Assembly (NCBI GenBank): GCA_034520665.1
Contig: JAXHNJ010000001.1
Coordinates: 2,579-66,578 of the forward strand
Source of the DNA: Patescibacteria group bacterium
GTDB lineage: Bacteria > Patescibacteriota > Patescibacteriia > JAXHNJ01
Direction of reading: 5' to 3'
DNA length: 64,000 bases
The first letter of the stretch is position 1. Every line of letters begins with the position of its first letter. A model generated the notes under the pieces. That model ran no database searches. It saw only the letters and a program-made list of their open reading frames with translations, and was not told where the DNA came from. The translations under genes and the position numbers were made by a program. Positions 14,772-57,882 of this stretch are shown here, piece after piece.

Positions 14772-14793
14772 AATATAAGTAAATATTATTAAT

Positions 14794-17660: not shown

Positions 17661-17663
17661 TAA

Positions 17664-18379: not shown

Positions 18380-18388
18380 GTGAAAGTA

Positions 18389-18907: not shown

Positions 18908-18957
18908 CTATAATAATAAATACTATCTAAAATTTTAATATTTGTCAAGAGCTTGGC

Positions 18958-21063: not shown

Positions 21064-21083
21064 CAGTATTTTTAAGAGTTACT

Positions 21084-21905: not shown

Positions 21906-21956
21906 GTTTATATGATAGCATAATTAATTTTAAAAATAAAAAATTATCCTTACCCA

Positions 21957-22028
21957 TGCCCTCGAGAGGAATTGAACCTCTATTTTAGGATCCGCAATCC
22001 TACGTCCTATCCGTTGAACGACGAGGGC
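21957..22028 (-). tRNA. tRNA-Arg (GCG), right-arm copy
   Basis: Reverse complement of 2560..2631. Confidence 0.7.
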
Positions 22029-22054
22029 AAAAGTAAAGATATCTTATAATTAAT

Positions 22055-22555
22055 CTAAATCTTAAGTGAACGGCTAATTTGATCTGAAGCTGGCTCTTCT
22101 TCCTTTTCTAAATCTTCTTCAATATATTTTTTTAACACTTTTCTGACTTCAAGTGGGTTTTGTTTTTCCAGAGAAATAGGCAGGGTTGGTTTAAGTGAGC
22201 TTTTAAAATCGATATAAAGCACTTTTGTTTCAGGAGGGCGGTAAACAATCCAGAATTTTTTAATATCATTGTAGTCATAGAAGCTAGTGCCAGTTTCTAT
22301 ACCATCTTCTTTAATGCGGCACTCAAGAATTTTTGGTTTTTTACGGTTTTGGAAAACAAAAATAATACCCACCAGAATAATAACCAGGGTAAAGAGATAA
22401 TTACCGGTAAAGATTGACCACACTAAAATAGCCGCCGATATTAATAAAGTAGAAACATACCATAATTTTCCCCGATTAGGTATGTCATATTCTGAAAAAT
22501 CCCATGAAAGTAAGGTTTTACCCCGATCAGGGATTTCTTTTTTTTCTTCAGCCAT
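22055..22555 (-). CDS. Hypothetical membrane protein (right-arm copy)
   Basis: Identical to 2033..2533. Confidence 0.5.
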   Translation of the reverse strand: MAEEKKEIPDRGKTLLSWDFSEYDIPNRGKLWYVSTLLISAAILVWSIFTGNYLFTLVIILVGIIFVFQNRKKPKILECRIKEDGIETGTSFYDYNDIKKFWIVYRPPETKVLYIDFKSSLKPTLPISLEKQNPLEVRKVLKKYIEEDLEKEEEPASDQISRSLKI

Positions 22556-23010
22556 ATATTTTTTCCTCCGTTTATTATTTAAATTATACTCTAATTATAG
22601 GTTTTTTTAGGGGATTTTTCAAGTTAGTGTTTTGAGGTACGTAGATTGGGGTTTAAAAACAAAGAAATGGCTCGGAGAAGTTGAAGTGAATATTCGCAAA
22701 ATACGCAAAATATCTCTTAAAAGAGGGTAGTCTAGACGAAAAGCGTGAACGGCTAGCGAATTTAAAAAGTAGATTAAACTATAAAGATAAAAAAAATTAC
22801 CTTAATAAAATAAAAAAACAACGACGAATCCGTTAAAACCGCTGTTTGTTTGTATTATTTAAGCCACTCGGGGTTACCCTCGATAAATAATTGTGTTTTA
22901 AAAAGGTATTAAGTTTTTTTACCTTTGATTAAATTTTCTTTCTTCTTTCTTGACCATTTCTTGATTTGTAATCCTGCTTGAGCGGGATGCGGAAACGACT
23001 TTATTTTTTC

Positions 23011-37300: not shown

Positions 37301-37879
37301 ATTGGTATTGGTAATGATAATCCTGTGGCAAAATTAACAATTAATAATGGTGTTAGTGATTCAGGTAGTTCAGGTGATGGGGTTTTTGCAGCAGTTGATA
37401 GTAGTAATGCTGCTATTTCTGGTAAGCAAACTGGTTCTGGTTACGCCGGTTATTTTTCCGGAAATGTAAAAGTGGATGGTAATTTTGAAGCGGATAATGT
37501 GGGTAGAATAACAATTACTGAACCTTATGAAGATTCTGGTATAATTGTTTCTGAAGATATTATTATTGAATATTGTGGTGATTTAGATGGTTGTAAAATA
37601 AGGCAAAGTGTATATAGTTTTGATACTAAGGGTACTCATGCTTCTAGAGATTTTTTATTTTTTTATAATCCTGATACTGGATGGTGGCGTCAAAATTATA
37701 ATGATGGAGGAGACGGGGATGCTCATAATAATGTTTCTGATACTATTACAAGGTTTTGGGAAAGTGAGTTCGTTGATGAATTTATAAATATTTATCCTTA
37801 TTATCATTTTGGATTCTATTGCCGTAATGATGATGATGGGAAGGTACCTGAGGGGTGTAAGCTTACCATTATAGATTAA
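34301..37879 (+). CDS. Giant surface protein (1192 aa): TM anchor, AGPPG motif, FN3-like domain, Cys-rich knots, YadA/Hep_Hag-like Gly-rich 14-mer repeats (xxVSGGxxNxAxGxxST)
   Basis: PTGMEPSSQSPTENSITISWQ...YHYRVVVWDG (FN3-like). CGNGTCDAGEDCDNCGLDCGCGG. Tandem TVSGG/ATVSGG/STVSGG/TISGG/AVAGG/FVSGG repeats. Confidence 0.6.
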   Translation: MKNKKLFISQTGNFYSIIIKILPILVIIGGFFLFKSEALAWSEPTAGPPGGNIAAPINISASSQTKLGNLKIGDNEKGLFWLAPKDSDYSPSNAEAGQIYYNSDNKIVYFDGSSSSWVELGAGGSGVNPFKLYNDTQTGWAYLKSNGSSEDPDIDYAIKGVAEDLGPNESYGLYGQADGASATSFGIYGYDGGYSGAYAGYFQGKVGISGDLCLNSNCRSTWPSGGGSGLWAENPGHTYLIDTDSNLSLGGNTPEDSVFNVDVNNGGSLVIGSPLDVSDSTYSCGDSICQTSSFGEDNTNCDQDCPPTGMEPSSQSPTENSITISWQADEEHYARIDYTSDFSESVYSDSSLPDGQPAASYNHEISGLDSETTYHYRVVVWDGYNNYGFSGDKTFTTTTSGCGNGTCDAGEDCDNCGLDCGCGGQICCYHDNAYTCEDCCGGSDCSGDDYCCTGIDWQCHDCCASSDCLDGYVCCADFSCHESCEKYGGKLIPFEELGSTALPLSYQNSELINQTKILGQTTKKLSQSLLIPEAKASTEWFENIIPVAQAAAPFDTENNRKLTIYGGVATVINSTDTNTYALEMGKAFDDGLAILTGNKLYLGGNSNNKILTVDTLNSQLRMDGSLARQGAEFLGDSNDSTKTNINLGVTWVDPSSTPEPDEESKVGVDGSDYKYITISGGGGNVAEGRGTTVSGGMRNFADRREATVSGGYSNQAIGHASTVSGGWENTAEATKSTISGGLSNLTRGTYSAVAGGVHNEADGFGSFVSGGGYNDAEGSYSWAGGYSSQAVHEGSFVWSDNTESSNGYPSKAAYTFNVYASGGSFFEGDTNASSGEIAGTTNLLTINPSENSSGNYRSTTNITNYNSNNYSNSGWVTGSKDYSRNNGNKTLENVAGSLSFAVNNSTGTINLAIGTLGAIKNKSTGTIHNAYSVVGDLFVKEGSTVENAHMLRAEDPNQLAEYNGTINNLYGLSIEDQTYGINQWAIYQEGSDDKSYFAGNIGIGNDNPVAKLTINNGVSDSGSSGDGVFAAVDSSNAAISGKQTGSGYAGYFSGNVKVDGNFEADNVGRITITEPYEDSGIIVSEDIIIEYCGDLDGCKIRQSVYSFDTKGTHASRDFLFFYNPDTGWWRQNYNDGGDGDAHNNVSDTITRFWESEFVDEFINIYPYYHFGFYCRNDDDGKVPEGCKLTIID

Positions 37880-37973
37880 TTTTTTTGATATTATAAATTT
37901 CAAAGAATATAATAATAGTTATCTATAGATTACCTTTATAAAATTATTATTAAAAAAATTTTTTAATTTTAAA

Positions 37974-40900
37974 ATGCCCAAAATAATTCGTGAAAAACCA
38001 GTCTTTTTCTTAGTCCCGGCTTTCATCTTGATTCTCGGGGCTGTCTTTTTATTTACTCATGTTAGCCGTTCAGCCTCAGAATTTGAAAAAGAAGCCGGAC
38101 CGCCGGGGTATGATGATATTAATATTATGGATATAGCGGCCCATTTTAATCCGCATACCAGCCGTTACTACGCCTGGACCGTGGGTTATAAGCACTCACC
38201 TTATATTGAAGCGCAAATTTTTACTTATAATGGAGCTACTTATTCCTGGCAGGCTCAAAATTTAAAACCTTGCGGAAAGCTAAAAGCAGTGGATTTGTTT
38301 TATGATACAGATTATAACCACCAAGATGACAGTCAGGGCCGTAATGGCTACCGAGCCTGGGCTGTCGGAGAATATGGTTATATATTAAAGTATACTGACT
38401 GGGAAAGAGGGGATCCGAATGATGATTCAGATAATTATGAAGGCTGGGGCTATTTATGTGATACTAGTAAAAATGATTGCAATTCAGACGGGACAATTGG
38501 AGAAGGTTTTGATGGTTCTCAAAATATTTCTGAACTTGTGGGCAGTAATTTGACAGATGTTGATTTTATTAATAAAGATACGGGCTGGATAGTAGCCAGT
38601 GACGGTAAAATTTTTAAAACTACCAATGGCGGGTTAGAGTGGGAGGAGAAAGCTGATTATGACTGGAATATAAACGCTATTAGTATGCTGCCAGACGGCA
38701 GTGCGGGTCTTGTAGTAGGTTATGACTATATTAACAATCGTGGCTATTATGCTTTATATGACGGCAATAATTGGACACCAGACGATATTGGCAGTGATAT
38801 TCTCACGGATGTAGAATTTGTTGATTCAAATCACGCCTGGATAGCTATTAATGCCAATCAATATTATTATTATCATAATTTAAGTTTTAGCCCGCTGAAT
38901 ACCGGATTAGGATTAACCAGTCCGCCAATTATGAACTCAGTCACGGCTACTCTTGACGGAGACGGCCAGTATAACGTTTGGTTTGCCGGCGAGGACGGAA
39001 AAATAATTTTTTCCAAAGATAATACTAACTGGTATTTTCAAACTACTGAAGTGCCGACCACTCTTCATTCCATTGACGCGGTTAACCCGACTCATGTCTG
39101 GTCAGTCGGTAACGATAGCTTAATCATGAAAATATCACCGGGCAACGCGGCTGGCTGGGGCTGGGTCGGGGCTGATAATTGTGAAAGCGATGATACTTGC
39201 GACACGCCTAATCCGGCTGACACTTCAAGACAATACCCGGCCCAGTGGATTAGTTTTAATTGCGCTAACCAACAGGTTTGTGATGAAACCACTTTTTCCT
39301 ATGGAGTAAATATTAAAACCAAGGTTGATGATTGGGGAGATTGCACCGATACCAGGCAAGATAAGGACGTCGGAGCTTTGTCAGGCTATGCCTGGTTTGG
39401 CAAGTATGATCCTTATGAAAGGCTGGAAGATGTAAAATGTGATTATGAACCAGGAGATGGCAATACTTATTGCTCAAACAATCATCTAGTTATATGTAAT
39501 GGTGATATAACTCGATGTGATTGCGGTAATAACAAACAAAGCTGTTATTCATCAGGCTGGCTTTCTTTTGATCGGGATGACACTGGTGATCCGCCGGCTG
39601 AGCCTTACCAAAATCTGCCAGTAACTACTCCTTTTAACGATGATACCGCTTGTACTAATAAAATAATTGATGACGGCGACCCGGAAGATTATGTTTTAGC
39701 CACTTTTGATTATGAGACCTATGGACTAGACGGCTGGGCTCGGTTTAAACTGGGTCAGTGTAGCAATGATATTAGTCAGTCTTGTTTTAAAGACAGTGAG
39801 TGTGGCAGCGGCAATACTTGTGATTATAATGGCCAGGGCCGATGTCAAGATGATTGGAGCATTTTATGTATTAATAATAGCGATTGTCCAGCTAGCGATT
39901 GTCAGTACCCCCAGGGCTGGGTCAAATTTCGGGGTGTTGATAAAACTGGAGAGGCTAATAATTATACCCCCTGCCAGGCTTGTCTAACCCATGACCCGAA
40001 TAACGATGATGAAGATTTATCTGATGATGATGGAGATGAATATATGACTTGTAAAATATGTGAGGGAGTAAAAGATTCAGATACTAGTTATATGTGTAAT
40101 CAGTGTGGCCAGTCAGTGGATAAAGGTCCTTGTGATACTGGAACTTGGTTTTGTGAAGGAGATGGTTCAATAACTTGTACTACAGATGCTGATTGTATTA
40201 CTTATCCCATGCAATGTGGCAATGGACTTTGTTCTGGGGATACAAGTAAAGCTTGTTTGGTTGATAGTAATTATAATCACTGTGGTAGTGACGGAGTTTG
40301 TGTTGGTAATGGCTATTGTTCAGAAGGTAATGATGTGGGCCAACCCTGTCTTTATAACAGTGATTGTGAAGGTACCTCTACTTGTGAAAATGTAGTAAAA
40401 GGTACTTGTTCAAATGATGATACAAAAAAGTGTATTATCGATGGCGGTTGTGAAAATGGGGGGGTTTGTGAAAATTATTTACCCAGCCTCCAAAATTTTT
40501 GTTTTGAATGTAATAGCTGTAATTTATACGGAGTGTCTGTTGATATAGACGCGGGGGACTGGTATGGTCATGCTTATTCGGAAGATTTTGGCTGGATAGA
40601 TATGTCTAAAGTGGGTCAATACAATACGGCCTGGGTCAGAGCCGAATACGGTGATATATACTCCAGCGGTAATGTCGGCACGCCCCAAACGGCCAGAGCG
40701 CCGGGCTGGACCACAGCTGACCGAGACTGTAATGCCACCTATCTTATTTTAGCTGGTGGTAGTGTAACTAATTTTTGTTCAGAAGCAGATTTTAATAAAA
40801 AATATTCTATTTCAAATCCAGGCAATCCTTCTGATGCCAATCCTTATGTAGTAGAAGGGTATCGGGCTTTTAATAAACCAGAAGAAACCAGTCCGCATAG

Positions 40901-41522
40901 TCTTTTAGGTACTATAAAAGTGGATAAATTAATTGAAAAAAAAGATGTAGAATTACAACGTAATGGTATCGAGGACCCATTATCCAGAGTCTCATCTAAT
41001 CAATTATTTGATGAAACTAATAGCGGAGATTTAGGCGGAAAAATCTATTATGTTAATGATAATTTATGGTTTTATGATTTACCATATTGGCAAACTTATT
41101 TATATAATGGAGAAAGTAACAGTTCTGGTTTAATTATTGTAGAAGGAGATTTATTTATTGATTCTGATATTTATTATGATGATAGTGACGTTGATAAAAT
41201 TAATAAATTACCTTCAGTTGGCTTTTATGTTAAAGGCAATATTCATATTGGCAAAGAGGTGGAAAATATTGTCGGTGCTTATTATACTGAAGGCAATGTC
41301 TATGTAAGCTCTACTGGGAGTGCTAATACAGACAAGAAATTAACAGTTAAAGGCTTAATGATCGCCAGTGGCTATAGTTTTAAGAGAAGATTCAAAGGCA
41401 CTATGAATAATCCCCAGCCGGCTGAAGTGATCAGTTATGACGGCCGAATTCAGCTTAACCCGCCGCCGGGCTTTCGTGATTTAGTCCAGTCTTTGCCCAA
41501 AATGAGGCCAGCTACCCCTTAA
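37974..41522 (+). CDS. Giant Cys-rich surface protein (1182 aa) with the same TM-then-AGPPG N-terminal arrangement
   Basis: N-terminal TM, then EKEAGPPG. Long Cys/Asp/Gly-rich central region. Putative adhesin or host-interaction protein. Confidence 0.55.
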   Translation: MPKIIREKPVFFLVPAFILILGAVFLFTHVSRSASEFEKEAGPPGYDDINIMDIAAHFNPHTSRYYAWTVGYKHSPYIEAQIFTYNGATYSWQAQNLKPCGKLKAVDLFYDTDYNHQDDSQGRNGYRAWAVGEYGYILKYTDWERGDPNDDSDNYEGWGYLCDTSKNDCNSDGTIGEGFDGSQNISELVGSNLTDVDFINKDTGWIVASDGKIFKTTNGGLEWEEKADYDWNINAISMLPDGSAGLVVGYDYINNRGYYALYDGNNWTPDDIGSDILTDVEFVDSNHAWIAINANQYYYYHNLSFSPLNTGLGLTSPPIMNSVTATLDGDGQYNVWFAGEDGKIIFSKDNTNWYFQTTEVPTTLHSIDAVNPTHVWSVGNDSLIMKISPGNAAGWGWVGADNCESDDTCDTPNPADTSRQYPAQWISFNCANQQVCDETTFSYGVNIKTKVDDWGDCTDTRQDKDVGALSGYAWFGKYDPYERLEDVKCDYEPGDGNTYCSNNHLVICNGDITRCDCGNNKQSCYSSGWLSFDRDDTGDPPAEPYQNLPVTTPFNDDTACTNKIIDDGDPEDYVLATFDYETYGLDGWARFKLGQCSNDISQSCFKDSECGSGNTCDYNGQGRCQDDWSILCINNSDCPASDCQYPQGWVKFRGVDKTGEANNYTPCQACLTHDPNNDDEDLSDDDGDEYMTCKICEGVKDSDTSYMCNQCGQSVDKGPCDTGTWFCEGDGSITCTTDADCITYPMQCGNGLCSGDTSKACLVDSNYNHCGSDGVCVGNGYCSEGNDVGQPCLYNSDCEGTSTCENVVKGTCSNDDTKKCIIDGGCENGGVCENYLPSLQNFCFECNSCNLYGVSVDIDAGDWYGHAYSEDFGWIDMSKVGQYNTAWVRAEYGDIYSSGNVGTPQTARAPGWTTADRDCNATYLILAGGSVTNFCSEADFNKKYSISNPGNPSDANPYVVEGYRAFNKPEETSPHSLLGTIKVDKLIEKKDVELQRNGIEDPLSRVSSNQLFDETNSGDLGGKIYYVNDNLWFYDLPYWQTYLYNGESNSSGLIIVEGDLFIDSDIYYDDSDVDKINKLPSVGFYVKGNIHIGKEVENIVGAYYTEGNVYVSSTGSANTDKKLTVKGLMIASGYSFKRRFKGTMNNPQPAEVISYDGRIQLNPPPGFRDLVQSLPKMRPATP

Positions 41523-41598: not shown

Positions 41599-42699
41599 AT
41601 GGGTCTTTTTTCCCGAAAAAAAAATTATTTAGGCGTTGATTTAGGCACTTCTTCAGTTAAAGTAGTGGAATTGGGCTTTGAATCAGGGGCCCCTAAATTA
41701 GTTACTTATGGTTTTATTGAAGAATCAACAAAAATTGTTAAAAGTGACTCTTCTGAGCAAAAAAAGAAAATTTCCTTATTAATAAAAAATTTACTGAAAA
41801 AAACCGGGGCCACCACTGATCAGGTTGTAGCGGCTTTGCCTAGTTTTAGCGTTTTTAGCTCTATTATATCTTTACCAGCTATGTCGGAAAAAGACCTTAA
41901 TTCGGCGGTACGCTGGGAAGCTAAAAAATTTGTACCCATGCCTTTGGAAGAGATGGTTTTAGACTGGCGTTTGGTTGAAGAAGAGAAAAAGAAAGAAAAG
42001 TCTAATGATGAAGATAAAAAAAAGAAAAAGGATAAAAAAATCAGTGATTATAAAATATTATTGACAGCCGCCCCTAAAAATTTAGCCAAAAAATACATTG
42101 ATATTTTTAAATCTTTAAATTTACAAATTGTCAGTTTAGAAACAGAATCTTTTGCTTTACAGAGATCCTTGATTGGTGATGATCCCTCGCCGGTTATGAT
42201 TGTGGATATAGGGGCTTTAGCCACTGACATTAGTGTAATAAAGAATGGCATTCCCATTTTAAATCGGGGTGTTGATGTCGGTGGCGATACTATCACTAAA
42301 TCAATTGCTAACGCTCTAAATATTGATTCTGAAAGAGCCGAGCAGTTTAAAAGAGATTTTGGTATTTCTAGTGGTCTAAGTCAAAATAATAATAGCCATC
42401 AAAATAAAATACCAAAGACTATAGAATTTGTTTTATCATCAGTGATCAATGAAATAAAACATGTTTTTAATCTTTATAAAAATATTGAAGATCTGCCGGT
42501 AGAGAAAATTGTACTTTCAGGCGGCTCGGCTTTTTTACCAAATTTTACCGAATATTTATCTAAATTATTTGATACCAAAGTAATTATTGGCAATCCCTGG
42601 TCTAGGGTGAGCTATCCTAAAGAATTAGAGCCGGCTTTAATGGAAATTGGTCCCCGTTTTTCAGTGGCCATAGGACTGGCTTTAAGAGAATTGATTTAA
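41599..42699 (+). CDS. pilM: Type IV pilus assembly protein PilM (actin-like ATPase fold)
   Basis: N-terminal GVDLGTSSVKVVEL motif. 366 aa. First gene of a pilMNO-like block. Confidence 0.8.
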   Translation: MGLFSRKKNYLGVDLGTSSVKVVELGFESGAPKLVTYGFIEESTKIVKSDSSEQKKKISLLIKNLLKKTGATTDQVVAALPSFSVFSSIISLPAMSEKDLNSAVRWEAKKFVPMPLEEMVLDWRLVEEEKKKEKSNDEDKKKKKDKKISDYKILLTAAPKNLAKKYIDIFKSLNLQIVSLETESFALQRSLIGDDPSPVMIVDIGALATDISVIKNGIPILNRGVDVGGDTITKSIANALNIDSERAEQFKRDFGISSGLSQNNNSHQNKIPKTIEFVLSSVINEIKHVFNLYKNIEDLPVEKIVLSGGSAFLPNFTEYLSKLFDTKVIIGNPWSRVSYPKELEPALMEIGPRFSVAIGLALRELI

Positions 42700-42707: not shown

Positions 42708-44219
42708 ATGCCTGATATAAATCTATTGAAAGACACTACCAGTGTAGAAAAGGATAATAAAAAATCCAAATCTTCGGATACTTCAGAAAAATCTGAAGTC
42801 AGTATGAAAAGGCCGAAAACTGATAAGCCAGGATTTTTTAAAAGAATTTTTTCTAAGAAGAATAAGCCAGATAAACAAATAAAAAAATATAATAAAGATT
42901 CAAGTTTTAAAAAGAATAAAAAATCAGAAAAGAAAGAAAAAAAGAAAGAAGAGAATAAATTAAAAGAAGCTTTTACTAGTAAGCCTGATAAAAAAGAAAA
43001 AGAAAAGCCTAAAAAAATTGAATATAAAAAAGCTGAGGAGCCAAAAGAAAAAAGCGCTGGTGGTTTTAGTAGTGTTTTTTCGGAAAAAAAAGCAGAAAAA
43101 AATGATATTAATAAAAAAGATTCTTTTAAGAGTAAAGATTTTTCAGATAATGAGAAGGTAGAGGATATTTTTTCTTCTACTGAAGAAGAAAAAGAAACGA
43201 AAAAACCCAAGCCAAAATTAATGACTGATAAAAAAACCTTGTCTTCTCAAAAGAAAAAAGAAAAACAAAAAGTAAAAAAAGAAGAAAAGGAAAAAAAGGA
43301 AAAAGAGGAGGGCCATAAAGATTCTTTTTTGGTTAATCTTATGCCGGAGGAAATTGCCAGTCATGAGAAACCAAAAAAGAAATTAATAAACCTGGCTTTA
43401 ATAGCTCTAACAGCTCTCGTATTGGTTGGTTTAGTCTATGCCGGCTTAGTTTTTTATCAAACTAGAATTGTAACAGAAATCCAGGATGTTAAAGCACAAA
43501 GAATAGAATTAGATAGGAGAATTAGAGAGTTAAAAGATGATCAAGAGAAATCAATTGAGTTTAAGCAAAATTTACAAGCTGTTAAAAGTGTTTTAAACAC
43601 CCATGTTTATTGGTCTAAATTTTTTGAAAAACTGGAAAAATATACCATAAAAGATGTTTACTATACTGGGGCTTTTAATGCTTCTACCGAAGGGAGTTTG
43701 ACTCTTTCGGCCATAGCAGCTGATTATACTTCAGTAGCGGAACAGCTCCTGGTTTTTCAGAATGCCGAAGATTTTTTATCAAATGTCAGTATTACTGGAG
43801 CTAGTAAATCTTCTCCGGAAATTCAAAGTTCTAATTTGGGAGAAACTGTATCAAAGGTTAGTTTTTCAGTCACTTTAGAAATTCTACCCACAATATTTTA
43901 TAAAATGGAAGAAGAGGATACTCAAGAGTCTCAATCTGAAAACATTAATTTAAATACTAATACTAACACTAGTACTAATACCAACAATAATAACTATAAT
44001 ATTAGTATTATTGATTTAAACTCCAATATCAATTCAAATTCTAATTCCAATACTAATATTAATTATGGTTATGATAACTTAAATACTAATACCAACACAA
44101 ACTTAATTAATAACAATACAAATAATAATATAAATTCTAATTCTAATTCTAATAATTCTTCTTTGAATGTTAATTATAATAGTAGTAATACCAATAGTGA
44201 TATATTAAATATTGAGTAA
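42708..44219 (+). CDS. PilN-like type IV pilus assembly protein with long K/E-rich N-terminal and N/T-rich C-terminal low-complexity extensions
   Basis: Single TM (LINLALIALTALVLVGLVYAGLVFY) followed by a coiled-coil periplasmic domain typical of PilN. Located directly after pilM. Confidence 0.55.
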   Translation: MPDINLLKDTTSVEKDNKKSKSSDTSEKSEVSMKRPKTDKPGFFKRIFSKKNKPDKQIKKYNKDSSFKKNKKSEKKEKKKEENKLKEAFTSKPDKKEKEKPKKIEYKKAEEPKEKSAGGFSSVFSEKKAEKNDINKKDSFKSKDFSDNEKVEDIFSSTEEEKETKKPKPKLMTDKKTLSSQKKKEKQKVKKEEKEKKEKEEGHKDSFLVNLMPEEIASHEKPKKKLINLALIALTALVLVGLVYAGLVFYQTRIVTEIQDVKAQRIELDRRIRELKDDQEKSIEFKQNLQAVKSVLNTHVYWSKFFEKLEKYTIKDVYYTGAFNASTEGSLTLSAIAADYTSVAEQLLVFQNAEDFLSNVSITGASKSSPEIQSSNLGETVSKVSFSVTLEILPTIFYKMEEEDTQESQSENINLNTNTNTSTNTNNNNYNISIIDLNSNINSNSNSNTNINYGYDNLNTNTNTNLINNNTNNNINSNSNSNNSSLNVNYNSSNTNSDILNIE

Positions 44220-44222: not shown

Positions 44223-44906
44223 ATGAAAATAAATTTTTCAAAAATTGTAAACCTGATGCGGAGTCTGTTTTTAAGGTATTTTAAAATATTAGCCATTGTT
44301 TTAGCTGTTTTGATTTTAGTTCTCGGATTTTTATTTATCGTTAAACCAAAATGGAATGAAGTTAAGGAAACAGGAATATTTGACCTTAATGCTGAAAAAG
44401 AAAAAAAGGAAGACAATGAACTGTATTTATCTAGATTGAAAGAATCTTTGGATAAATTTAAAGAGATAAATCAGAAAGATATTGATTCTTTAAGTCAGAT
44501 AATACCAAGTAAAAAAGAAATTCCCGAGCTTTTTATAATTTTAGAGGATTTAGTGAGTCATTCAGCTTTGAGTCTGGATTCTATAACTTTTTCTGAAGGC
44601 AGTGTCTTGAGTCAAGAAAATGATTCTTTAAGTGATAACCTTGATGAATTACCGGCGGCGCAAGCCAAGGTTATTAAAAATACCTCAGTGAGTAAAAATA
44701 TTAATATACTTAATATTTCTTTGAGTATCAGCGGTGGACGTAATTATAATGATTTAAAGACTCTTCTTAATGATATTGAAGAAGAACAGAGAATAATGGA
44801 TATTTCAAGTTTAAGTTTTAATCCGCAAAGTCAGAGTAGTATTGATGCCGGCATGAATTTTGGTTTGAATTTAAAAACTTATTATATAGAGAGAGATAAT
44901 GATTAA
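44223..44906 (+). CDS. PilO-like type IV pilus assembly protein
   Basis: N-terminal TM plus coiled coil. Positioned after the PilN-like gene. Confidence 0.5.
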   Translation: MKINFSKIVNLMRSLFLRYFKILAIVLAVLILVLGFLFIVKPKWNEVKETGIFDLNAEKEKKEDNELYLSRLKESLDKFKEINQKDIDSLSQIIPSKKEIPELFIILEDLVSHSALSLDSITFSEGSVLSQENDSLSDNLDELPAAQAKVIKNTSVSKNINILNISLSISGGRNYNDLKTLLNDIEEEQRIMDISSLSFNPQSQSSIDAGMNFGLNLKTYYIERDND

Positions 44907-44912: not shown

Positions 44913-45203
44913 ATGGTCTTAGTAAGAAAAAGAAATTATAAAAAAATAGCTGTCTACAGCGTTATTTTAGTTATTGTAATAATTTTAGGCGGTTATATGG
45001 TTTATAATTCCATGAGTGAAAATGGCGGTAGTAAAGTAATAGATGTTAGTTCAGAGCATAATCGGCCTATTATTAGTGATTATGAAAAAGATTTTCTTGA
45101 AAAAGAAGATTATAAAAATTTAATTGAATTTGGTAAAAATAAGTTACCATTGGATTTAGAAAACATTAGGACAAAGCGTAATAATCCTTTTAATCCTATT
45201 TAG
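44913..45203 (+). CDS. Small membrane protein (possible PilP-like accessory)
   Basis: N-terminal TM. 96 aa. Lies between the pilO-like gene and pilB. Confidence 0.35.
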   Translation: MVLVRKRNYKKIAVYSVILVIVIILGGYMVYNSMSENGGSKVIDVSSEHNRPIISDYEKDFLEKEDYKNLIEFGKNKLPLDLENIRTKRNNPFNPI

Positions 45204-47003: not shown

Positions 47004-47399
47004 ATGACTAAAAAAGATAAGGCAAAAAAGCAAAAAATATTATTAGTGGAAGATGATACTTTTCTTTCTGGGATGTATGTTTCCAAACTTGATATAGAGG
47101 GTTTTGAGACGGTTCTGGCCTCAGAAGGTAAGCAAGGTTTGAAAATGGTAAAACAAGAAAATCCAGATCTTATTTTATTGGATATAATTTTGCCAAAAAT
47201 GGACGGTTTTGAAATTTTAAAAGAAATAAGAAAAGATAAAAAAACTAAAGATATTCCGGTTATTCTTTTAACTAATTTAGGTCAAAAAAAAGACGTAGAC
47301 AAGGCTTTTAATCTGGGAGCGGTTGATTACTTAATCAAAGCCCATTTTATGCCTTCAGAGGTAGTGGAAAAAATTAAAAAAACTTTAAGGAAAGAATAA
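47004..47399 (+). CDS. Stand-alone response-regulator receiver domain (CheY/PilH-like)
   Basis: ILLVEDD...LLDIILPKMDGF...LTNLGQ receiver motifs. 131 aa. Confidence 0.8.
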   Translation: MTKKDKAKKQKILLVEDDTFLSGMYVSKLDIEGFETVLASEGKQGLKMVKQENPDLILLDIILPKMDGFEILKEIRKDKKTKDIPVILLTNLGQKKDVDKAFNLGAVDYLIKAHFMPSEVVEKIKKTLRKE

Positions 47400-47400: not shown

Positions 47401-48474
47401 ATGCCCACCGGAGAAAAGATAATTTTAGATAAAATATTATCTACTGGCGCTGAATATAATGCCAGTGATTTTCATTTAACTGTCGGCAATCCACCTATCT
47501 TGCGGGTAGATGGCAAGTTAGTGCCTTTGACTGATCAGCCAGTAATTAATCCGGATTTTATGAAAGACATGGTAAATAATATTTTAAATGATAAGCAAAA
47601 AAATAAATTAGAAAAGGAAAAAGAAATTGTTTTGGCTCATACCATGTCCAATAAATCAAGATTTAAAATTAGTATTTTTTATCAAAAAGGTTATTTGGCC
47701 GCTTCTTTGCGCCTGATTGATAAAAAAATTAAAAATTTGGATGAATTAGGCTTACCCGGAGTGATTAAAAAATTTACTGAGATTGAAAAAGGATTAGTTA
47801 TTATAAGCGGTCCTTTTGGTTCCGGGCGAACCTCAACTATCTCGGCTATTATTAATGAAATCAATAAAAATAGAGCTGATCATATTATTACTATTGAAAA
47901 ACCAATAGAGCATATTTATATCAATAACAAGTCAATAATTGAACAGAGAGAAGTAGGCCGGGATACTAAGTCATTTACCCAGGCTTTGAATACAGCCTCA
48001 CATGAAGACGTGGATGTGATTTATGTTTCAGAGGTTGAAAAGCTGGAAGTGGCTGAAGCTATGTTAAATGCCGCTGAATCCTCTCGCTTAGTTATTTGCT
48101 CTATGAATACTGATTCAGTTTTACGGACTATTGAAAAAATTATTTCTTTTTTCCCCGAAGACAGAGAAGAACAAATAAGAAATCAATTTGCCGGTGTTTT
48201 GTCAGGTATAGTTTCACAAAGGCTGCTGCCCCGGGTGGGCGGCGGACGTATTGCTGTGGCGGAAGTTATGATCCCTAATGATGCGGTACGATCAGTTATT
48301 CGTGAGGGAGCTATTTATCAAATCAATAATGTTCTCCAGACTTCCAGAGATGAAGGTATGATTTCTCTTGATAAATCTTTATCCGAGTTAACAAAAACCG
48401 GTGAAATACTAAGAGAAGACGCTTTAACTAATGCTAATGATAAGCAAAATATTAAATCAATGATAAAACGTTAA
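47401..48474 (+). CDS. PilT-like retraction ATPase paralog with degenerate Walker A (GPFGSGRTST) and no His-box histidine
   Basis: Aligns to the PilT core (GLVIISGPFGSGRTSTISAIINEINKNRADHIITIE), but Walker A has Lys replaced by Arg and the TLHT His-box reads CSMNT. Confidence 0.7.
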   Translation: MPTGEKIILDKILSTGAEYNASDFHLTVGNPPILRVDGKLVPLTDQPVINPDFMKDMVNNILNDKQKNKLEKEKEIVLAHTMSNKSRFKISIFYQKGYLAASLRLIDKKIKNLDELGLPGVIKKFTEIEKGLVIISGPFGSGRTSTISAIINEINKNRADHIITIEKPIEHIYINNKSIIEQREVGRDTKSFTQALNTASHEDVDVIYVSEVEKLEVAEAMLNAAESSRLVICSMNTDSVLRTIEKIISFFPEDREEQIRNQFAGVLSGIVSQRLLPRVGGGRIAVAEVMIPNDAVRSVIREGAIYQINNVLQTSRDEGMISLDKSLSELTKTGEILREDALTNANDKQNIKSMIKR

Positions 48475-48482: not shown

Positions 48483-49691
48483 ATGGCCGTTTTTGATTAT
48501 AAAGCAAAAAATAAATCAGGGGATACAGTCAATGGGGCGGTAGAGGCGCCTTCAGAAAATGTCGCTCAGGAAGTTCTGCGCGACAAGGGCTTGATTGTCC
48601 TTTCGGTTAATGAACGGAGTAAAATAACTCTTTTTCAGTCTACTTTTGGTTTTTTGAAAAGAGTGCCGCGCAAAGACGTGGTTATGTTTTCCCGCCAATT
48701 AGCGGTTTTAATTGCGGCCACGGTGCCGATTGTTCAAGCCTTGCGCATATTGGTGAAGCAGCAGAAGAATGTTAATTTTAAAATAATTTTATCAGAAATT
48801 GCTGATGAAGTCGACGGCGGGGCCCGGCTCTCCCAAACCTTGGGAAAATATCCTCAGGTTTTTTCTGATTTTTTTGTTCATATGATTCGTTCTGGTGAAA
48901 CCACTGGTAAACTAGATGAAACTTTAAATTATCTGGCTGATCAGCAGGAGAGGGATTATGACTTAATGAGTAAGATTAAAGGAGCCATGATTTATCCGGT
49001 ATTTATTGTCGGCGGTATGATCGCGGTGGGTGTTTTAATGATGATTTTTGTGCTGCCAAAGTTAACCGAAGTTTTGGAACAAGGCGGCGGTGAACTGCCT
49101 TGGTCCACTAAGTTGGTTATGGGGACTAGCGGATTTTTACAAAGTAAGTGGTGGCTCTTGCTTTTGATAATTATAATACTAGTAGCGGTTTTTATTTTAA
49201 TCAGAAAAAATCCGGCTGGCCAGAGAAAGCTGGATGAGCTAAAAATGCGTCTGCCGGTTTTTGGCCAAATTTACCAAAATATTTATTTAGTCCGTTTTTC
49301 TCGCAGTCTTGCTACTCTTCTTGTCTCTGGGGTTACTTTAACAAAATCTTTGGAAATTACCGGTGATATTGTCGGTAATCTTTTGTATAAGGAATTAGTA
49401 GAGGATACTATTGAGGACGTAGAATCGGGAAAGTCTATTGCCACTAGTTTTTTAAAAAGTAAAGCCGTACCGGTAATGCTGCCCCATATGATGGCTATTG
49501 GTGAACAAACCGGTAAAATGGACTTAATTTTAGACAAAATTTCCGGATTTTACGCTCGCGAGCTGGAAAATACAGTGAATAATTTAGTTAGCCTGATCCA
49601 GCCCTTTATTCTTGTAATTATGGGTATTGGCGTAGCCGTAATGGTTATGTCTATATTACTACCGATGTATAATTTGTCGCAAGCTGTATAA
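48483..49691 (+). CDS. pilC: Type IV pilus inner-membrane platform protein PilC (GspF family)
   Basis: Two GspF-type repeats and three TM regions. 402 aa. Confidence 0.85.
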   Translation: MAVFDYKAKNKSGDTVNGAVEAPSENVAQEVLRDKGLIVLSVNERSKITLFQSTFGFLKRVPRKDVVMFSRQLAVLIAATVPIVQALRILVKQQKNVNFKIILSEIADEVDGGARLSQTLGKYPQVFSDFFVHMIRSGETTGKLDETLNYLADQQERDYDLMSKIKGAMIYPVFIVGGMIAVGVLMMIFVLPKLTEVLEQGGGELPWSTKLVMGTSGFLQSKWWLLLLIIIILVAVFILIRKNPAGQRKLDELKMRLPVFGQIYQNIYLVRFSRSLATLLVSGVTLTKSLEITGDIVGNLLYKELVEDTIEDVESGKSIATSFLKSKAVPVMLPHMMAIGEQTGKMDLILDKISGFYARELENTVNNLVSLIQPFILVIMGIGVAVMVMSILLPMYNLSQAV

Positions 49692-49897: not shown

Positions 49898-50437
49898 ATG
49901 AAAAACAAAAAAGGTTTTACTTTAATTGAATTGTTAGTGGTTATTGCTATTATTGGTATTTTGTCAGCCATTGGTTTGGTGGCTTTGAACGGAGCTCGTG
50001 AAAAAGCTCGTGACGCCCAGGCCAAGTCTGACTTAGGCCAGATTAGAACCGCTTTGACTCTTTATAACGATGATGAAGGGGAATATCCTGACGCCGCTAC
50101 TTTAGTAAGTATTAATGCTAGTATTATGGGTACCGATTTAGTGCCTGATTATTTGGGTACAGCATTAACTCCACCTGATGGAGCAACTGCAATAGGCTCA
50201 ACTACTTCATTTGATAGAGTATACTATTATATTGAAGATGATGCTGAAAATACTTTTGGATTAGCTTATATCCTAGAAGGAGGCGGTGGTGATTCGGTTT
50301 ATTTTCTTAACTCTGATGGAGGCTCGGGAGAGTTAGATATTACTGAGCCAGTCGATGAGGCCGCTTTTATAGATAGTGTTGAATGTTTAGATAGCACAAG
50401 CGGTAGCTTAGATATATGTGAGGGTGTTATTAATTAA
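49898..50437 (+). CDS. pilA: Type IV major pilin (prepilin-type N-terminal cleavage/methylation)
   Basis: [19 protein letters not shown] class III signal (G-1, E+5). 179 aa. Own promoter and terminator. Confidence 0.85.
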
Positions 50438-50505
50438 CCCATAGAAAATCTCTAAAGATATTATTGATACAGGAATAAGCAAAAAAACACTTATTTATAT
50501 AGAGG

Positions 50506-50541
50506 AAAGGACCTTTATTAAAAGAGGTCCTTTTTCTTTTT
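50506..50541 (+). terminator. Rho-independent terminator after the major pilin gene
   Basis: AAAGGACC-tttattaaaaga-GGTCCTTT followed by a T-run. Confidence 0.75.
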
Positions 50542-50565
50542 ATAAATATTTGTTATAATTTATAT

Positions 50566-50976
50566 ATGAATAATAAAGGCTTAAATTTAAAAGAATTAAT
50601 TATATTCACGGCTTTGCTTTTACTGATTATTGTTTTGGGGATTTTACTTCTTCGCAGTGAAAGAGCCCGAGTTAGGGACGCTAAAAGAGTAGCTGATATG
50701 ACGCGTCTGCGCTATGGTTTTGAAATACTATTTAATGAAGAGAATAGCTACGCTCCGGCCGCTGAAGGATGTGAGCAGGAAAATTCTTTAGCCTCAAAGT
50801 GTAATTTGAGTCAATATTTGCCTAATATTTCTTCTATCAAAGATCCGGGTAAATACAGTTATCAAGTAAAATCAGTACCGGATAAAGAAAATTATGTTAT
50901 AAGTTTTTCTTTGGAAAAAGATTATGATGGTTTAGTAGCTGGCAAACACCTTTTAGACTCAAACGGCATACATTAA
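50566..50976 (+). CDS. Minor pilin-like protein (non-canonical prepilin signal KG|LNLKEL)
   Basis: G at -1 and E at +5 relative to the predicted cleavage site. Hydrophobic helix follows. Confidence 0.55.
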   Translation: MNNKGLNLKELIIFTALLLLIIVLGILLLRSERARVRDAKRVADMTRLRYGFEILFNEENSYAPAAEGCEQENSLASKCNLSQYLPNISSIKDPGKYSYQVKSVPDKENYVISFSLEKDYDGLVAGKHLLDSNGIH

Positions 50977-52321
50977 TGGTGTTTGAAAGTTTGAATTTTT
51001 TCAAGCAGAGATAAATCTTTTGCCTACGCGTTGAGTAGTAGGTGTTTCTTCTTTTTGAATCGCTATTGATTTATCTTTGTTTTTTAATTCATCCTCATTC
51101 CGCGTCGGTGGAGATCCTCATCTCCACTTTAACAATAGTAAGCGGTGTCCACGCGAAAGCGTGAGAATGTATCAATTTTTTTGTTAACATAGCGCCGGAT
51201 AAATCCGGCGCCAGGGTGTTAAATAATATAAAATACAACCCGGCGTAACATCCATATGGCGACATTTTAAAAAGATTACTCCACGAGTATAAATTAATTA
51301 GTATTAAAACAAAGGGTTTTGGGCCGAGCCGCTAGTTTGGTTATTAGGCTGAGTCAATGGTTTTTTATTCCAAACCCACCACCAAAACCTTACTAGCTGC
51401 TATAACCATAACCAATTAGCAAAACATAAATCGCCGGATAAATCCGGCGCCTTCACTTCTCCATCCGCGTAGCTGGAGATTTATCTCCAGGGGTTAGAAT
51501 AATTCGGGTAGAGGTGAGCCCTCGCTCGCCTCTAAAATAAGGCCAAAGCGAGGGCTTTGGCCGACCCTTTTTATTATAAATACTAAAATAATTTTCAAAA
51601 AGCTAAATTCTCTAAAATTATTAATCTGTCTTCATTAAATAATCATTTAAATAATAATTCCTATAACCTGAGTATTTATAATCTTCCGAATTTTTAAAGC
51701 TTTTATAAAATACTCTATTATTTTATCGCGAGAAGAACTGGTCCCCAGACCTGTTCTGGCAATATATTTACTAAGCTCAAGGCCGAGTGACTAGAGCTTC
51801 TCGGTGAGTTAAAGATTTAATAATCTATTTTTTCTCGAGAAGGTTGGATCTCCTGATCCAACCGAATAAGGTGACGCGGATCAGGAGATCCGCGCTTCTC
51901 GGGTAATTTTAAGGGCTTCCTTGGCAGTTTGTTTTATACTAGGTAGAGGCGGGTCATGGCTCGTCTCTAGGCCTGGTCTATTAATATTAAAAATAAATTT
52001 AAACAAAAGCATAATATTTGAAATATTTAATATATTGCGGGAATAGGCATTCCCGGCTAGGCGGTTTTATTTAAAGGCGGAGATAAATCTCCGCCTACGC
52101 GAAAACAAACATCTTTATCTGCGTCGGTGGAGATCTCCATCTCCACATTAATAATAGTAAGTGGTGTCCACGCGAAAGCGTGAGAATGTATCAATTTTTT
52201 TGTTAACATAGCGCCGGATAAATTCGGCGCCTTCACCTCTTCATCCGCGTAGCTGGAGATTTATCTCCAGATTCATCTTCGGTTTAAATAAGGTCTTTTT
52301 TATGGTATAATATAATAAAGT
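50977..52321. repeat. 1.35-kb noncoding region dense in GC-rich hairpin repeats (GGAGAT...ATCTCC cores, GCGCCGGAT-AAA-TCCGGCGC, CACGC-GAAA-GCGTG)
   Basis: Composite units at ~51001..51217, 51425..51490 and 52076..52270 are near-identical. Additional hairpins at 51497..51560, 51843..51894, 51930..51962 and 52037..52056. No ORF of 60 aa or more. Confidence 0.8.
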
Positions 52322-53092
52322 ATGAGCATTATTTATTATTTATTAATCTTTATTTTTGGCCTCATTGGTGGCAGTTTTTTAAATGCGGTTATTTACCGTC
52401 TTCATGCGAAAAAGTCATTTTTAAAGGGACGTTCATTTTGCCCTCATTGCCAACATCAGCTAAAAACCGCTGATTTAATACCACTTTTCAGCTTTATTTT
52501 TTTAAAAGGTCAATGCCGCTATTGCCAAAAAAAAATATCCTGGCAGTATCCTCTGGTGGAATTAGCAACCGCTTTGTGTTTTTGTCTTTTATTTTTTCGT
52601 TTTAACTGGTCTTTAGAATTTATTTTTTATCTGGTTATTACTCTTTTTCTGATTATTATTTTTGTTTATGACTGGCGCTATCATCTTATTTTAGATAAGG
52701 TCAGTATAACGGCTGTGATTTTGGCTTTAATTTTTAGTTTAATATTAGGCTTATCAATTTATAGCCTTTTATTAGGCGCTTTGATTGGTGGCGGTTTTTT
52801 CTTTTTGCAGTATTTAATATCAAAAGGTAAATGGATTGGCGGCGGTGATATTCGTTTGGGAGTTTTAATGGGTTTTATACTGGGCTGGCAAAAAATTTTA
52901 GTAGCGCTGTTTTTAGCTTATTTTGTTGGCGCTGTATTTGCCATATTTTTAATAATATTAAAGAATAAGAAATTAAAAAGTCATCTGCCTTTTGGCACTT
53001 TTTTAACTGCCGGAACTTTTGTGGCTCTGCTTTGGGGCCAAGTAATTATAGACTGGTATTTATCGGGGAGTTTAGTCAATTGGTTTTATTAA
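52322..53092 (+). CDS. pilD: Prepilin peptidase PilD (A24 family)
   Basis: N-terminal zinc-binding CPHC...CRYC, multiple TM helices, catalytic Asp-containing segments. Confidence 0.85.
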
Positions 53093-53095
53093 ATT

Positions 53096-53788
53096 ATGAA
53101 ATTATCATCAAGAAAAAAAGGTTTTACCCTAATTGAAATAATTGTTTCTTTTGCGGTTTTTACTATATTAATGGGGGTGGTTATTTTTGGCTTCCAAGAC
53201 ACCAAGAAACATGAAGAATTGCGTGGGGCTAGTTTACAGATGGTGAGCAATATTAAAAAGGTGCAAAATTACGCTCAGACTGGCCATGAATTTGAAGATG
53301 AGGTACCGGCCGGTGGCTATGGTTTGCATATAGATTTGAGTAATCAATCCCAGTATTTATTGTTTGCTGATAAATCATCTGTTAGTACGGCTACTGGTTG
53401 TGTTGATGATGCTGGTAATCAAAGATATGATAATGAAGATGGCTACAGTCCGTCTTGTATTGAGGATAAGATAATCGGAGCTGGGCAGGTTAATTTTGAT
53501 CAAGGAGTTACCATAAACAAAATTGAAGTAAAAGAAATAAATAAAAGCGAAATTATTTTGGATACAAGCCATGATTTTGATCTTACTTTTAAAAATCTTA
53601 AACCCTTCCCTTTTATTGGTTGGCTCAATCAAAATATCAACCGAGATCCGGGTAATGAAAATTTTAATTCTGAAAAAATAGAATATGTTAATATTTATTT
53701 GAGTCATGAAGACTTAAATAAATGCCGTAAAATTCATATTATTGGCGCTTCCGGTGCTGTTAATGAAGAGAGTTCAGATTGCCCCTAA
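53096..53788 (+). CDS. Pilin-like protein (prepilin signal [13 protein letters not shown])
   Basis: Class III signal peptide with E+5. Confidence 0.75.
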   Translation: MKLSSRKKGFTLIEIIVSFAVFTILMGVVIFGFQDTKKHEELRGASLQMVSNIKKVQNYAQTGHEFEDEVPAGGYGLHIDLSNQSQYLLFADKSSVSTATGCVDDAGNQRYDNEDGYSPSCIEDKIIGAGQVNFDQGVTINKIEVKEINKSEIILDTSHDFDLTFKNLKPFPFIGWLNQNINRDPGNENFNSEKIEYVNIYLSHEDLNKCRKIHIIGASGAVNEESSDCP

Positions 53789-53798
53789 ATTAAAAATT

Positions 53799-54350
53799 AT
53801 GAGAATATTTAGAAAAATCAAAAATAAAATTAAAGGTATGTCGCTGATGGAGACTATTTTAGCCGTGGGTTTGGTGATGTCAGTCATTATTGGTTCTTTA
53901 ACTATTGGCATCTACACCACTCGTATTGGCCGCAGCAGCCAGAATCGCTTAATTGCTATAAATTTAGCACAAGAAGGGGTTGAAGTAGTGAGAAATATAA
54001 GAGATACAAACTGGCTTAAGGAAAATTCTTGGAATGATGGTTTAGCGGAAGGAACTTATAAGATTGATCAATACGTACTAACAAGCCCTCCGGAAAAATG
54101 GTTCCAAAAATTGAAAGGAGCTGGAAACTGTGATGATAGCAATCCTTGCTGGCTATATTTAGATAATGATTATGGTTTTTATTCGCTTAATTCAACTGCA
54201 GGAAAAAACACGGGATTTTCTCGTGTTATTGAAATAACAAATATTGATGTCAATACAATTCAGGTGGTCTCAAGAATTAACTGGCAGGAAAATGGGAAAG
54301 ATAAAGAATATTTAATAGAAGAAAAATTAACTGACTGGCGCGATGATTAA
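53799..54350 (+). CDS. Pilin/pseudopilin-like protein (KG|MSLMETI)
   Basis: Start chosen at the internal ATG preceding the KGMSLMETILAVGLV prepilin signal. The ORF track begins earlier at 53742. Confidence 0.6.
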   Translation: MRIFRKIKNKIKGMSLMETILAVGLVMSVIIGSLTIGIYTTRIGRSSQNRLIAINLAQEGVEVVRNIRDTNWLKENSWNDGLAEGTYKIDQYVLTSPPEKWFQKLKGAGNCDDSNPCWLYLDNDYGFYSLNSTAGKNTGFSRVIEITNIDVNTIQVVSRINWQENGKDKEYLIEEKLTDWRDD

Positions 54351-55032
54351 TATATTTAAAAATAATAAAAAAGGTTTTACCTTATTGGAGATGCTAATTT
54401 CAGCGTCTATTTTTGCTATTACGGTAGTGATTGGAGTGGATATATTTTTTGGGGTAGCCCGGATGCAGAAGAGAACTACTTATGTCCAAAATGTGCAAGC
54501 TGACGCCCGGTATGTCCTGGAAGAAATGGCTAAACAGCTCCGGCAGGGGATGATAAATTACCAGTGGTATGATAAAGAAAATTCTCCAGTTAAAGAAAAA
54601 ATACCGCTTTCAGATTTAAGAGATAACAGCCATGAAGATAATAAAATTTTAGCCACTAAAGACTTGGACGGCAATCAATTCTTTTTTGAAAGGGTACCAG
54701 AAGGTACCTTGCATGATGGCTCTGTTCGCTATGTAATGAAAGTTTGTTCTATTGATATTACCGGCGGTGACGATTTAGATAAATGTGATGACCGAACAAA
54801 TAATAGTAGTTGGCAAATAGTAACTCCAAACGAAATAAATGTTGATAAATTTTACCTTTTTGTTTCTCCCTCAAAAGATCCTTTTGTATTAGATGAGAAT
54901 TCTCAATATGAAGCCAACCAGCAGCCGATGGTAACTATTGTTTTTCACACCTCAACTGACCGGCCCGAAAAAGAATATCAAATTGATACCAAGTTATCAA
55001 CCACTATTTCCTCGCGTATTTACAAAAGATAA
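54343..55032 (+). CDS. Pilin-like protein (KKGFTLLEMLISASIFAITVVIG)
   Basis: Canonical prepilin cleavage motif. Confidence 0.75.
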   Translation: MINIFKNNKKGFTLLEMLISASIFAITVVIGVDIFFGVARMQKRTTYVQNVQADARYVLEEMAKQLRQGMINYQWYDKENSPVKEKIPLSDLRDNSHEDNKILATKDLDGNQFFFERVPEGTLHDGSVRYVMKVCSIDITGGDDLDKCDDRTNNSSWQIVTPNEINVDKFYLFVSPSKDPFVLDENSQYEANQQPMVTIVFHTSTDRPEKEYQIDTKLSTTISSRIYKR

Positions 55033-55037
55033 ATTTT

Positions 55038-57882
<2,845 letters not shown>

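Follow-up and report, generated by a model that had tools for sequence, protein, structure and literature searches.

A lineage-conserved PilT relative, probably impaired in ATP hydrolysis, in the retraction-ATPase slot of a patescibacterial type IV pilus operon

Few systems are enriched across the Candidate Phyla Radiation (CPR)/Patescibacteria, and type IV pili are one of them; DNA uptake, attachment to hosts and twitching have all been ascribed to these pili. The locus described here raises the question of what the protein in the slot of the retraction ATPase can still do once its catalytic motifs have degenerated. It lies in a stretch of 64,000 nucleotides (64 kb) from an ultrasmall Patescibacteria group bacterium (contig JAXHNJ010000001.1, positions 2,579 to 66,578), called the window below, and the gene in question, which we name pilTv (protein PilTv, for variant PilT), sits inside a type IV pilus operon. 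The answer that we favor, with a probability of roughly 55%, is that pilTv encodes a lineage-conserved and structurally intact protein descended from PilT, the retraction ATPase of the operon, and that this protein would have kept the nucleotide-binding scaffold and lost the machinery for hydrolysis.

47401..48474, plus strand: pilTv, a PilT-family protein of 357 amino acids with degenerate catalytic motifs (TIGR01420 and 2EWV matches, AlphaFold2 model, Foldseek search and selection analysis, all detailed below)

PilTv belongs to the PilT family by sequence and by fold. In a hidden Markov model search, it reached 351.3 bits against the NCBIfam PilT/PilU profile TIGR01420 (curated cutoff 319.1), in an alignment that spans residues 9-349 of the protein and positions 2-342 of the 343 in the profile. 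Its best solved relatives in HMMER are PilT retraction ATPases (E=2e-85 for Aquifex aeolicus 2EWV and about 1e-80 for Geobacter PilT4), to which it is 38-39% identical with template-modeling (TM) scores of 0.9 or higher. It does not qualify as a PilU, being nearer to PilT (290 bits for PilT in the PDB versus 224 bits for PilU 9N32), carrying degenerate catalytic motifs and having no adjoining second PilT-family gene. The AlphaFold2 monomer model, for which 76 sequences of the PilTv clade were aligned, is confident (predicted local distance difference test, pLDDT, 92.3; predicted TM score 0.87) and displays the two-domain PilT architecture, with an N-terminal PAS-like domain and a C-terminal RecA-like ATPase domain. 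Foldseek superposes this model on Geobacter metallireducens PilT4 bound to ATP or adenylyl imidodiphosphate (AMP-PNP) (6OJX/6OKV) with a TM score of 0.93 and a root-mean-square deviation of 1.6-1.8 Å. The C-terminal helix that resembles AIRNLIRE in the family is also kept and reads AVRSVIRE.

The register of the catalytic motifs was taken from HMMER alignments of PilTv to A. aeolicus 2EWV and Geobacter sulfurreducens 5ZFQ:

47809..47838, plus strand: Walker A motif (P-loop), residues 137-146, GPFGSGRTST versus canonical GPTGSGKSTT, with Arg143 in place of the invariant Lys
47890..47910, plus strand: Asp box, residues 164-170, TIEKPIE versus TIEDPIE, with Lys167 in place of Asp and with E166 and E170 kept
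48013..48048, plus strand: Walker B region, residues 205-216, DVIYVSEVEKLE versus canonical DVIFVGEMRDLE, with the catalytic Glu211 kept
48073..48111, plus strand: His box, residues 225-237, AESSRLVICSMNT versus canonical AETGHLVFGTLHT, with both His gone (Arg229 and Asn236)

The original prediction, made by eye, had proposed that this PilT-like ATPase is catalytically impaired because the Walker A Lys is replaced by Arg and the His box is lost. The formal alignments agree with its register: the P-loop holds no lysine, Arg143 stands at that position, and neither His of the His box remains (Asn236 is encoded by AAT, 48106-48108). PilTv thus lacks two features expected of a canonical motor, namely the invariant Walker A Lys and a His box with two His. 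The losses go further than had been noticed. Compared with Pseudomonas aeruginosa PilT, K136 has become R143, D160 of the Asp box K167, R206 E213, D207 K214, H222 R229 and H229 N236, and two more residues that are invariant in canonical proteins have changed, D77 to Val and R201 to His (equivalent to P. aeruginosa D70 and R194). Around the Walker B Glu, the sequence runs S-E-V-E-K instead of the canonical G-E-M-R-D, with Ser for Gly210, Glu for Arg213 and Lys for Asp214. The catalytic E204 and the Asp-box E163 of P. aeruginosa are retained as E211 and E170.

Several of these positions are known to be sensitive. In P-loop nucleoside triphosphatases (NTPases), the beta- and gamma-phosphates are contacted by the Walker A Lys, a ligand that is regarded as strictly conserved (10.1101/2022.06.23.497301). 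In P. aeruginosa PilT, the gamma-phosphate is coordinated by H229/H230, and E204A and H229A each abolish twitching (10.1101/672212). A natural single change, R206S, is sufficient to render Vibrio cholerae PilT defective (PMC6762196), and the residue equivalent to this arginine is Glu213 in PilTv. In the literature searched, we found no description of a degenerate CPR PilT clade, of a pseudo-ATPase PilT or of a K136R variant.

Could such a gene simply be decaying, or could the Lys-to-Arg change be a sequencing or assembly artifact? The degenerate motifs themselves and an assembly-like fold-back elsewhere in the window (see below) could speak for this explanation, which is nevertheless extremely improbable. 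Arg143 is encoded by CGA (47827-47829), which is two substitutions away from AAA or AAG and therefore excludes a single-base sequencing error at this residue. The open reading frame (ORF) is full length, and the identical protein is present on an independent Logan contig. The best 120 homologues from a search across 5.8 billion protein clusters, 50-92% identical to PilTv, come from many samples, and their source names are all of Patescibacteria/CPR (Kerfeldbacteria, Nomurabacteria or "Patescibacteria group"). Within this set, the Walker A Lys position is occupied by Arg in 107 proteins, by Lys in 12 and by Met in one; the first His-box position (229) holds Arg in 111 and His in five; and the second (236) is never His, with Asn in 83 and Ser, Asp or Glu in 31. 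At the Asp-box position 167, we counted Lys (74), Gln (26), Arg (8) and Asn (7). The catalytic Glu211 is retained in 102 of the 120, and the P-loop glycines and both Asp-box Glu (E166 and E170) in 119-120, G137 and G142 being invariant. So consistent a pattern lies far beyond chance. The alignments, the codon and the homologues together rule out a wrong register and a sequencing error.

Selection on the gene tells the same story. Relative to L089, the nearest relative with available DNA (92% amino acid identity to PilTv), the ratio of non-synonymous to synonymous substitution rates (dN/dS) is 0.028 for pilTv, 0.030 for pilB and 0.036 for pilC, ratios that are only approximate since dS is high (1.8). 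Purifying selection on pilTv is unambiguous and as strong as on pilB, and together with the confidently predicted fold (pLDDT 92), the low dN/dS led us to reject the pseudogene. PilTv is a lineage-wide, selected and catalytically degenerate PilT orthologue, and the named taxa that carry it include Kerfeldbacteria, Komeilibacteria, Buchananbacteria and "Parcubacteria", the first of which has been assigned to the GTDB class ABY1 (PMC12577380). Contig JBAZBY010000001.1 (1.03 Mb) also carries pilTv.

What this lineage conserves becomes clearer at greater distance. When 1.84 billion representatives (at 50% identity) were searched exhaustively with HMMER, 33,083 proved to be PilT-family representatives, of which the best 150 were examined: 99 are single PilT modules with the full K/H/H/E signature and about 45 lack both His. 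In a neighbor-joining tree, the His-less proteins group in a single long-branched clade, apart from all 99 canonical representatives, and the same split between degenerate and canonical proteins was repeated with proteins from GTDB genomes. Among 43 degenerate representatives, Arg occupies the Walker A position in 65%, against 33% with Lys, and the catalytic Glu is present in only 37%, being otherwise Q, K, S, N, V, G or L. The canonical-invariant residues lost in these 43 are D77, R201, R213, D214, T227, H229 and H236 (PilTv numbering), while G137, G142, T145/T146, N155, E166, P168, E170, Q182, R183 and D188 are kept at 79-100%. Since residues of the binding scaffold are kept and those of hydrolysis are lost across the clade, selection appears to act on binding and not on catalysis; judged from these alignments, what the whole family conserves is the fold and the phosphate/nucleotide-binding scaffold, not the hydrolysis residues. 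By score, the nearest canonical relatives are CPR PilTs, from Saccharibacteria and from the long-form WS6/Dojkabacteria/"Nomurabacteria" groups (P0141, P0144).

Three further observations were made on these relatives. Many tandem PilT-PilT fusions of 700-1000 amino acids appeared in the representative search (P0121-P0129, P0165, P0183 and P0237), several of which pair one degenerate with one fully canonical module, as a covalent pseudo-ATPase and ATPase; the degenerate N-terminal half of P0128 reads GNRGSGRSCT and TLQDRIR. A second PilTv subtype (L015-L018; for example, L018 10001-12139 on JBMOKY010000001.1, 1.15 Mb) keeps the Walker A Lys and has R/E for both His, and is encoded in an isolated pair within the order pth, pilTv, pilM-like gene, mfd, with pilB and pilC absent within 10 kb. 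Finally, the canonical WS6/Dojkabacteria-type PilTs (P0144, P0148-P0154 and relatives; L007 8930-11584, L008 10001-12070) carry N-terminal extensions of 150-500 amino acids with a high content of S, T, P, Q and N, a disordered look and no Pfam domain; they are absent from PilTv and from Saccharibacteria PilT.

We also looked for a second, intact PilT gene. No other PilT-family gene was detected by tblastn in the window, and none by ORF and phmmer maps of the 10 kb on either side of 34 pilTv loci. The peptide pattern used to scan the genome collection matches only 5 of the 99 canonical representatives and is uninformative on second copies. P0024/P0499 (18199 bp), considered as a contig shared by a variant and a canonical PilT, was discarded, as it is not one contig. 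In the KEGG supplement to the description of Patescibacterium danicum, two closed genomes of the ABY1 class, along with eight relatives, are listed with pilT = 1, pilB = 1, pilC = 1 and comEC = 2 (PMC11809585); the value of 2 indicates that the entries are counts and not presence flags. The main text of the same study labels the P. danicum gene "PilT (retraction ATPase)" (PMC11809585), and if this gene is of the PilTv type, PilTv would be the sole PilT homologue in this organism.

These counts bear on the proposal of PilTv as an inactive ring and adaptor that would bring another, active ATPase to the platform, which could be a PilU-like protein or canonical PilT paralogue encoded elsewhere, or PilB. 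Precedents exist: PilU powers retraction only when PilT is present, even a catalytically dead one (PMC6821130, PMC6762196), Bdellovibrio combines a degenerate PilT1 in its operon with a canonical PilT2 elsewhere (PMC4237445), and nature has fused degenerate to canonical halves (P0128, P0237 and P0123). We nevertheless judge this proposal improbable in view of the missing second gene in the window and around the 34 loci, and of the single pilT counted in closed ABY1-class genomes, which is assumed to be of the PilTv type.

A more serious contender, raised in the original prediction as an ATPase that uses Arg unconventionally, is a PilTv that still works as a retraction ATPase, perhaps more slowly than a canonical one, through a rewired site in which Arg143 binds phosphate, Arg229, Asn236 and Lys167 sense the gamma-phosphate and Glu211 activates water. 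The substitutes are indeed conserved in the subclade (R143 in 107 of 120, E211 in 102, R229 in 111, N236 in 83 and K/Q/R167 in 108), the P-loop glycines and Asp-box glutamates are invariant, dN/dS is 0.028, and the intact predicted fold is closest to PilT bound to ATP or AMP-PNP. Moreover, closed ABY1 genomes have one pilT each (PMC11809585), and CPR bacteria are believed to rely on DNA uptake through pili (PMC6744442). We still hold such a motor to be unlikely, because the Walker A Lys is described as strictly conserved among P-loop NTPases (10.1101/2022.06.23.497301), because H229A, E204A and R206S each cripple a canonical PilT while at least four such changes coincide in PilTv, and because the catalytic Glu, which just 37% of the wider clade retain, shows that catalysis is not what the family as a whole conserves. 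Nor is there clear covariation of R143 with an Asp-box Lys/Arg (87 of 135 Arg forms versus 13 of 26 Lys forms), and a relocation of the lysine, by which the Asp-box change from D to K would compensate the Walker A change from K to R, was rejected on the same figures.

The combination of at least four changes at crippling sites with a catalytic Glu that is dispensable in the wider clade makes impaired hydrolysis the most likely outcome. Read from the alignments, PilTv would probably bind nucleotide, with hydrolysis that is very slow or absent, and hence would not be the retraction motor, a conclusion that we favor somewhat over its negation. Three points weigh against it. The subclade to which PilTv belongs strongly conserves Glu211 (102/120), the Walker A Thr, the Asp-box Glu, R143, R229 and N236, a pattern that would also fit a remodeled but working active site. 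If the single pilT of ABY1 genomes is pilTv, these organisms would, unusually, have no retraction ATPase for DNA uptake or any twitching. Lastly, any specific role of PilTv, as a switch, an adaptor or the brake or scaffold of the original prediction, is one that we infer.

The operon around pilTv is otherwise complete, and had been called canonical at the outset. The cluster is of the Gram-positive type and comprises a large secreted protein, pilM-N-O, a gene for 96 amino acids, pilB, a receiver gene, pilTv, pilC, pilins, pilD and minor pilins, followed by ligA:

41599-42699, plus strand: pilM (PilM_2, 150.7 bits)
42708-44219, plus strand: gene in the pilN position (no Pfam match)
44223-44906, plus strand: pilO (PilO, 29.9 bits)
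44913-45203, plus strand: small gene for 96 amino acids
45207..46982, plus strand: pilB, extension ATPase (PF00437, 443.6 bits, plus MshEN; TIGR02538, 574 bits)
47004..47399, plus strand: single-domain response-regulator receiver (PF00072, 88.7 bits)
48483..49691, plus strand: pilC, platform protein (PF00482 T2SSF, 183.8 bits, in two stretches)
49898-50437, plus strand: pilin
50566-50976, plus strand: pilin-like gene
52322-53092, plus strand: pilD, prepilin peptidase
53096-55862, plus strand: four minor-pilin-like genes (for the genes from 49898 to 55862, N_methyl motifs and A24_N_bact / Peptidase_A24 matches)

PilB keeps the Walker A motif GPTGSGKST, as originally reported, and its other three motifs are canonical as well (LEDPVE, MVGEVRD and LTGHIVLSTLHT in the translation). 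The gene order of the cluster is shared by L002 and L004 (contigs of 0.38-1.03 Mb), by L089 and by 28 GTDB loci. When a single genome for each GTDB species was scanned and 88 loci were then mapped with ORFs and phmmer, a receiver lay between pilB and pilTv in 28 of 29 operon-type pilTv loci. In about 20 other CPR loci, the same layout, from pilM through pilB, receiver, pilT and pilC, comes with a PilT that is canonical throughout (K/D/E/H/H), and in WS6/Dojkabacteria-type operons pilB, pilT and pilC follow each other with the receiver further downstream. As canonical CPR PilTs share its slot, PilTv is their positional orthologue.

The receiver gene is confirmed in its position ahead of pilTv, its stop codon being separated from the pilTv ATG by 1 nt, and the original prediction took it as a hint of a regulatory pseudo-ATPase. 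This argument does not hold. The receiver also precedes canonical PilTs and thus predates the degeneration, so that it provides no evidence for a pseudo-enzyme role; it also fails as a marker of the degenerate form, the receivers of both sets being equally canonical in their acidic pocket, Asp, Thr and Lys. The idea of a catalytically impaired pseudo-ATPase therefore stands in its first half, in which impaired catalysis is made likely by the comparative data (a Glu in 37% of the wider clade), and loses the support that the receiver was meant to give. Among the window ORFs scanned with Pfam, no histidine kinase partner was found.

How might PilTv then act? If its hydrolysis is very slow or absent, retraction would not be powered by it. 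Given that it keeps the fold, the AVRSVIRE helix and the operon slot, and is under strong selection, it should still act on the pilus machine. PilTv probably still forms PilT-type hexamers, and its Arg-containing P-loop would bind ATP or ADP, making it a non-motor element at the PilC/PilM platform. The most likely role would be that of a ring or switch, dependent on its ATP state, which competes with PilB at this platform or displaces it. Displacement of PilB could end extension and permit a slow, motor-independent retraction, or could hold the pili extended for attachment. The receiver encoded between pilB and pilTv probably biases which of the two hexamers engages the platform, as a control layer that would be older than the degeneration of PilT.

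Other features of the window were recorded along the way. Between the pilin-like gene and pilD, 1.35 kb (50977-52321) hold no ORF of at least 60 amino acids; they contain direct repeats at 51099-51212 / 52118-52231 (114 nt, 94%) and 51432-51490 / 52212-52270 (59 nt, 95%), and small GC-rich hairpins (GCGCCGGATAAATCCGGCGC and GGAGATAAATCTCC). An Rfam scan of the operon region, this interval included, returned no family at gathering score. The interval may be an element resembling repetitive extragenic palindromic (REP) sequences or miniature inverted-repeat transposable elements (MITE), or a structured RNA. Directly upstream of pilM (34301-41522), two secreted-looking proteins of 1192 and 1182 amino acids, rich in Cys, Asp and Gly, have only faint Pfam matches (BNR/YCF48-like; Pur_ac_phosph_N). 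As a large protein is conserved at the equivalent position in L002 and L004, it may be a pilus-associated adhesin.

The fold-back mentioned above occupies positions 1-24587 as a near-perfect palindrome centered at about 12295, with arms at 1-6781 / 17807-24587 (100%), 6838-11114 / 13476-17752 (99%) and 11577-12290 / 12299-13012 (99%, with 8 nt between them). Every gene in it has a mirror copy, the genes being those for an aminotransferase, DUF5673, RecG, a DsbA-like protein and two T4SS_pilin-domain proteins. The structure has the look of a fold-back chimera of assembly or amplification, or is possibly a real hairpin-type inverted duplication, and may extend further left since it begins at window position 1.

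The consequences reach beyond this locus. That strong selection maintains an altered PilT throughout a large lineage of the CPR implies that type IV pili may run there without a conventional retraction motor. In its broadest form, which we regard as tentative and rather doubtful, this idea would extend to a whole class-level, ABY1-type lineage of CPR bacteria (Kerfeldbacteria, Komeilibacteria, Buchananbacteria and relatives) with PilTv as the only PilT-family protein and no retraction ATPase, where PilTv would be an ATP-binding pseudo-enzyme that gates PilB, and retraction would be motor-independent or driven by PilB. Genome reconstructions routinely call this gene "PilT, retraction ATPase", as for the type species of the ABY1 class, P. 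danicum (PMC11809585). If PilTv cannot hydrolyze ATP, functional inferences will have to be revised for a large part of the diversity of the CPR, and the family would be a natural, deeply conserved case of a secretion-superfamily ATPase turned pseudo-enzyme. It also bears on motor-independent retraction and on the exchange of PilB and PilT at the platform.

To conclude, PilTv can be set beside the systems already described. With canonical PilTs (P. aeruginosa PilT, G. metallireducens PilT4 and A. aeolicus PilT), it shares the family, the two-domain fold, the length, the C-terminal helix and the slot between pilB and pilC, but they keep the Walker A Lys, both His, the Asp-box Asp and R206, D207, R194 and D70, all of which PilTv has lost, and several of its changes are each disabling in a canonical protein. 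The PilT of Saccharibacteria TM7x type IV pilus T4P-1 and the long-form WS6/Dojkabacteria PilTs occupy the same slot, pilB-(receiver)-pilT-pilC, often with the same receiver upstream. Unlike PilTv, these canonical CPR proteins retain the K/D/E/H/H residues, the Walker A and B boxes of TM7x PilT being reported as well conserved (PMC11623550), and the WS6-type proteins have long N-terminal extensions where PilTv has none.

A functional parallel is the ATPase-dead PilT of V. cholerae (Walker A and B mutants, and the natural MO10 R206S variant), which does not hydrolyze ATP, still occupies the machine and keeps a function in support of PilU-driven retraction (PMC6821130, PMC6762196). However, these forms were made in the laboratory or come from a single strain, and their residual function depends on PilU, whereas the PilTv changes are ancient, fixed and spread over several sites, with no PilU seen nearby. 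By its description, Bdellovibrio bacteriovorus PilT1 (Bd1510) is likewise a degenerate PilT inside a pilB-pilT1-pilC operon; it has no recognizable Walker A box and has been proposed to play a regulatory or stabilizing, non-motor part (PMC4237445). Yet Bdellovibrio has a canonical PilT2 elsewhere and its PilT1 is described as being without most PilT motifs, while PilTv has a complete P-loop scaffold with an Arg in it and forms a large and deeply conserved clade.

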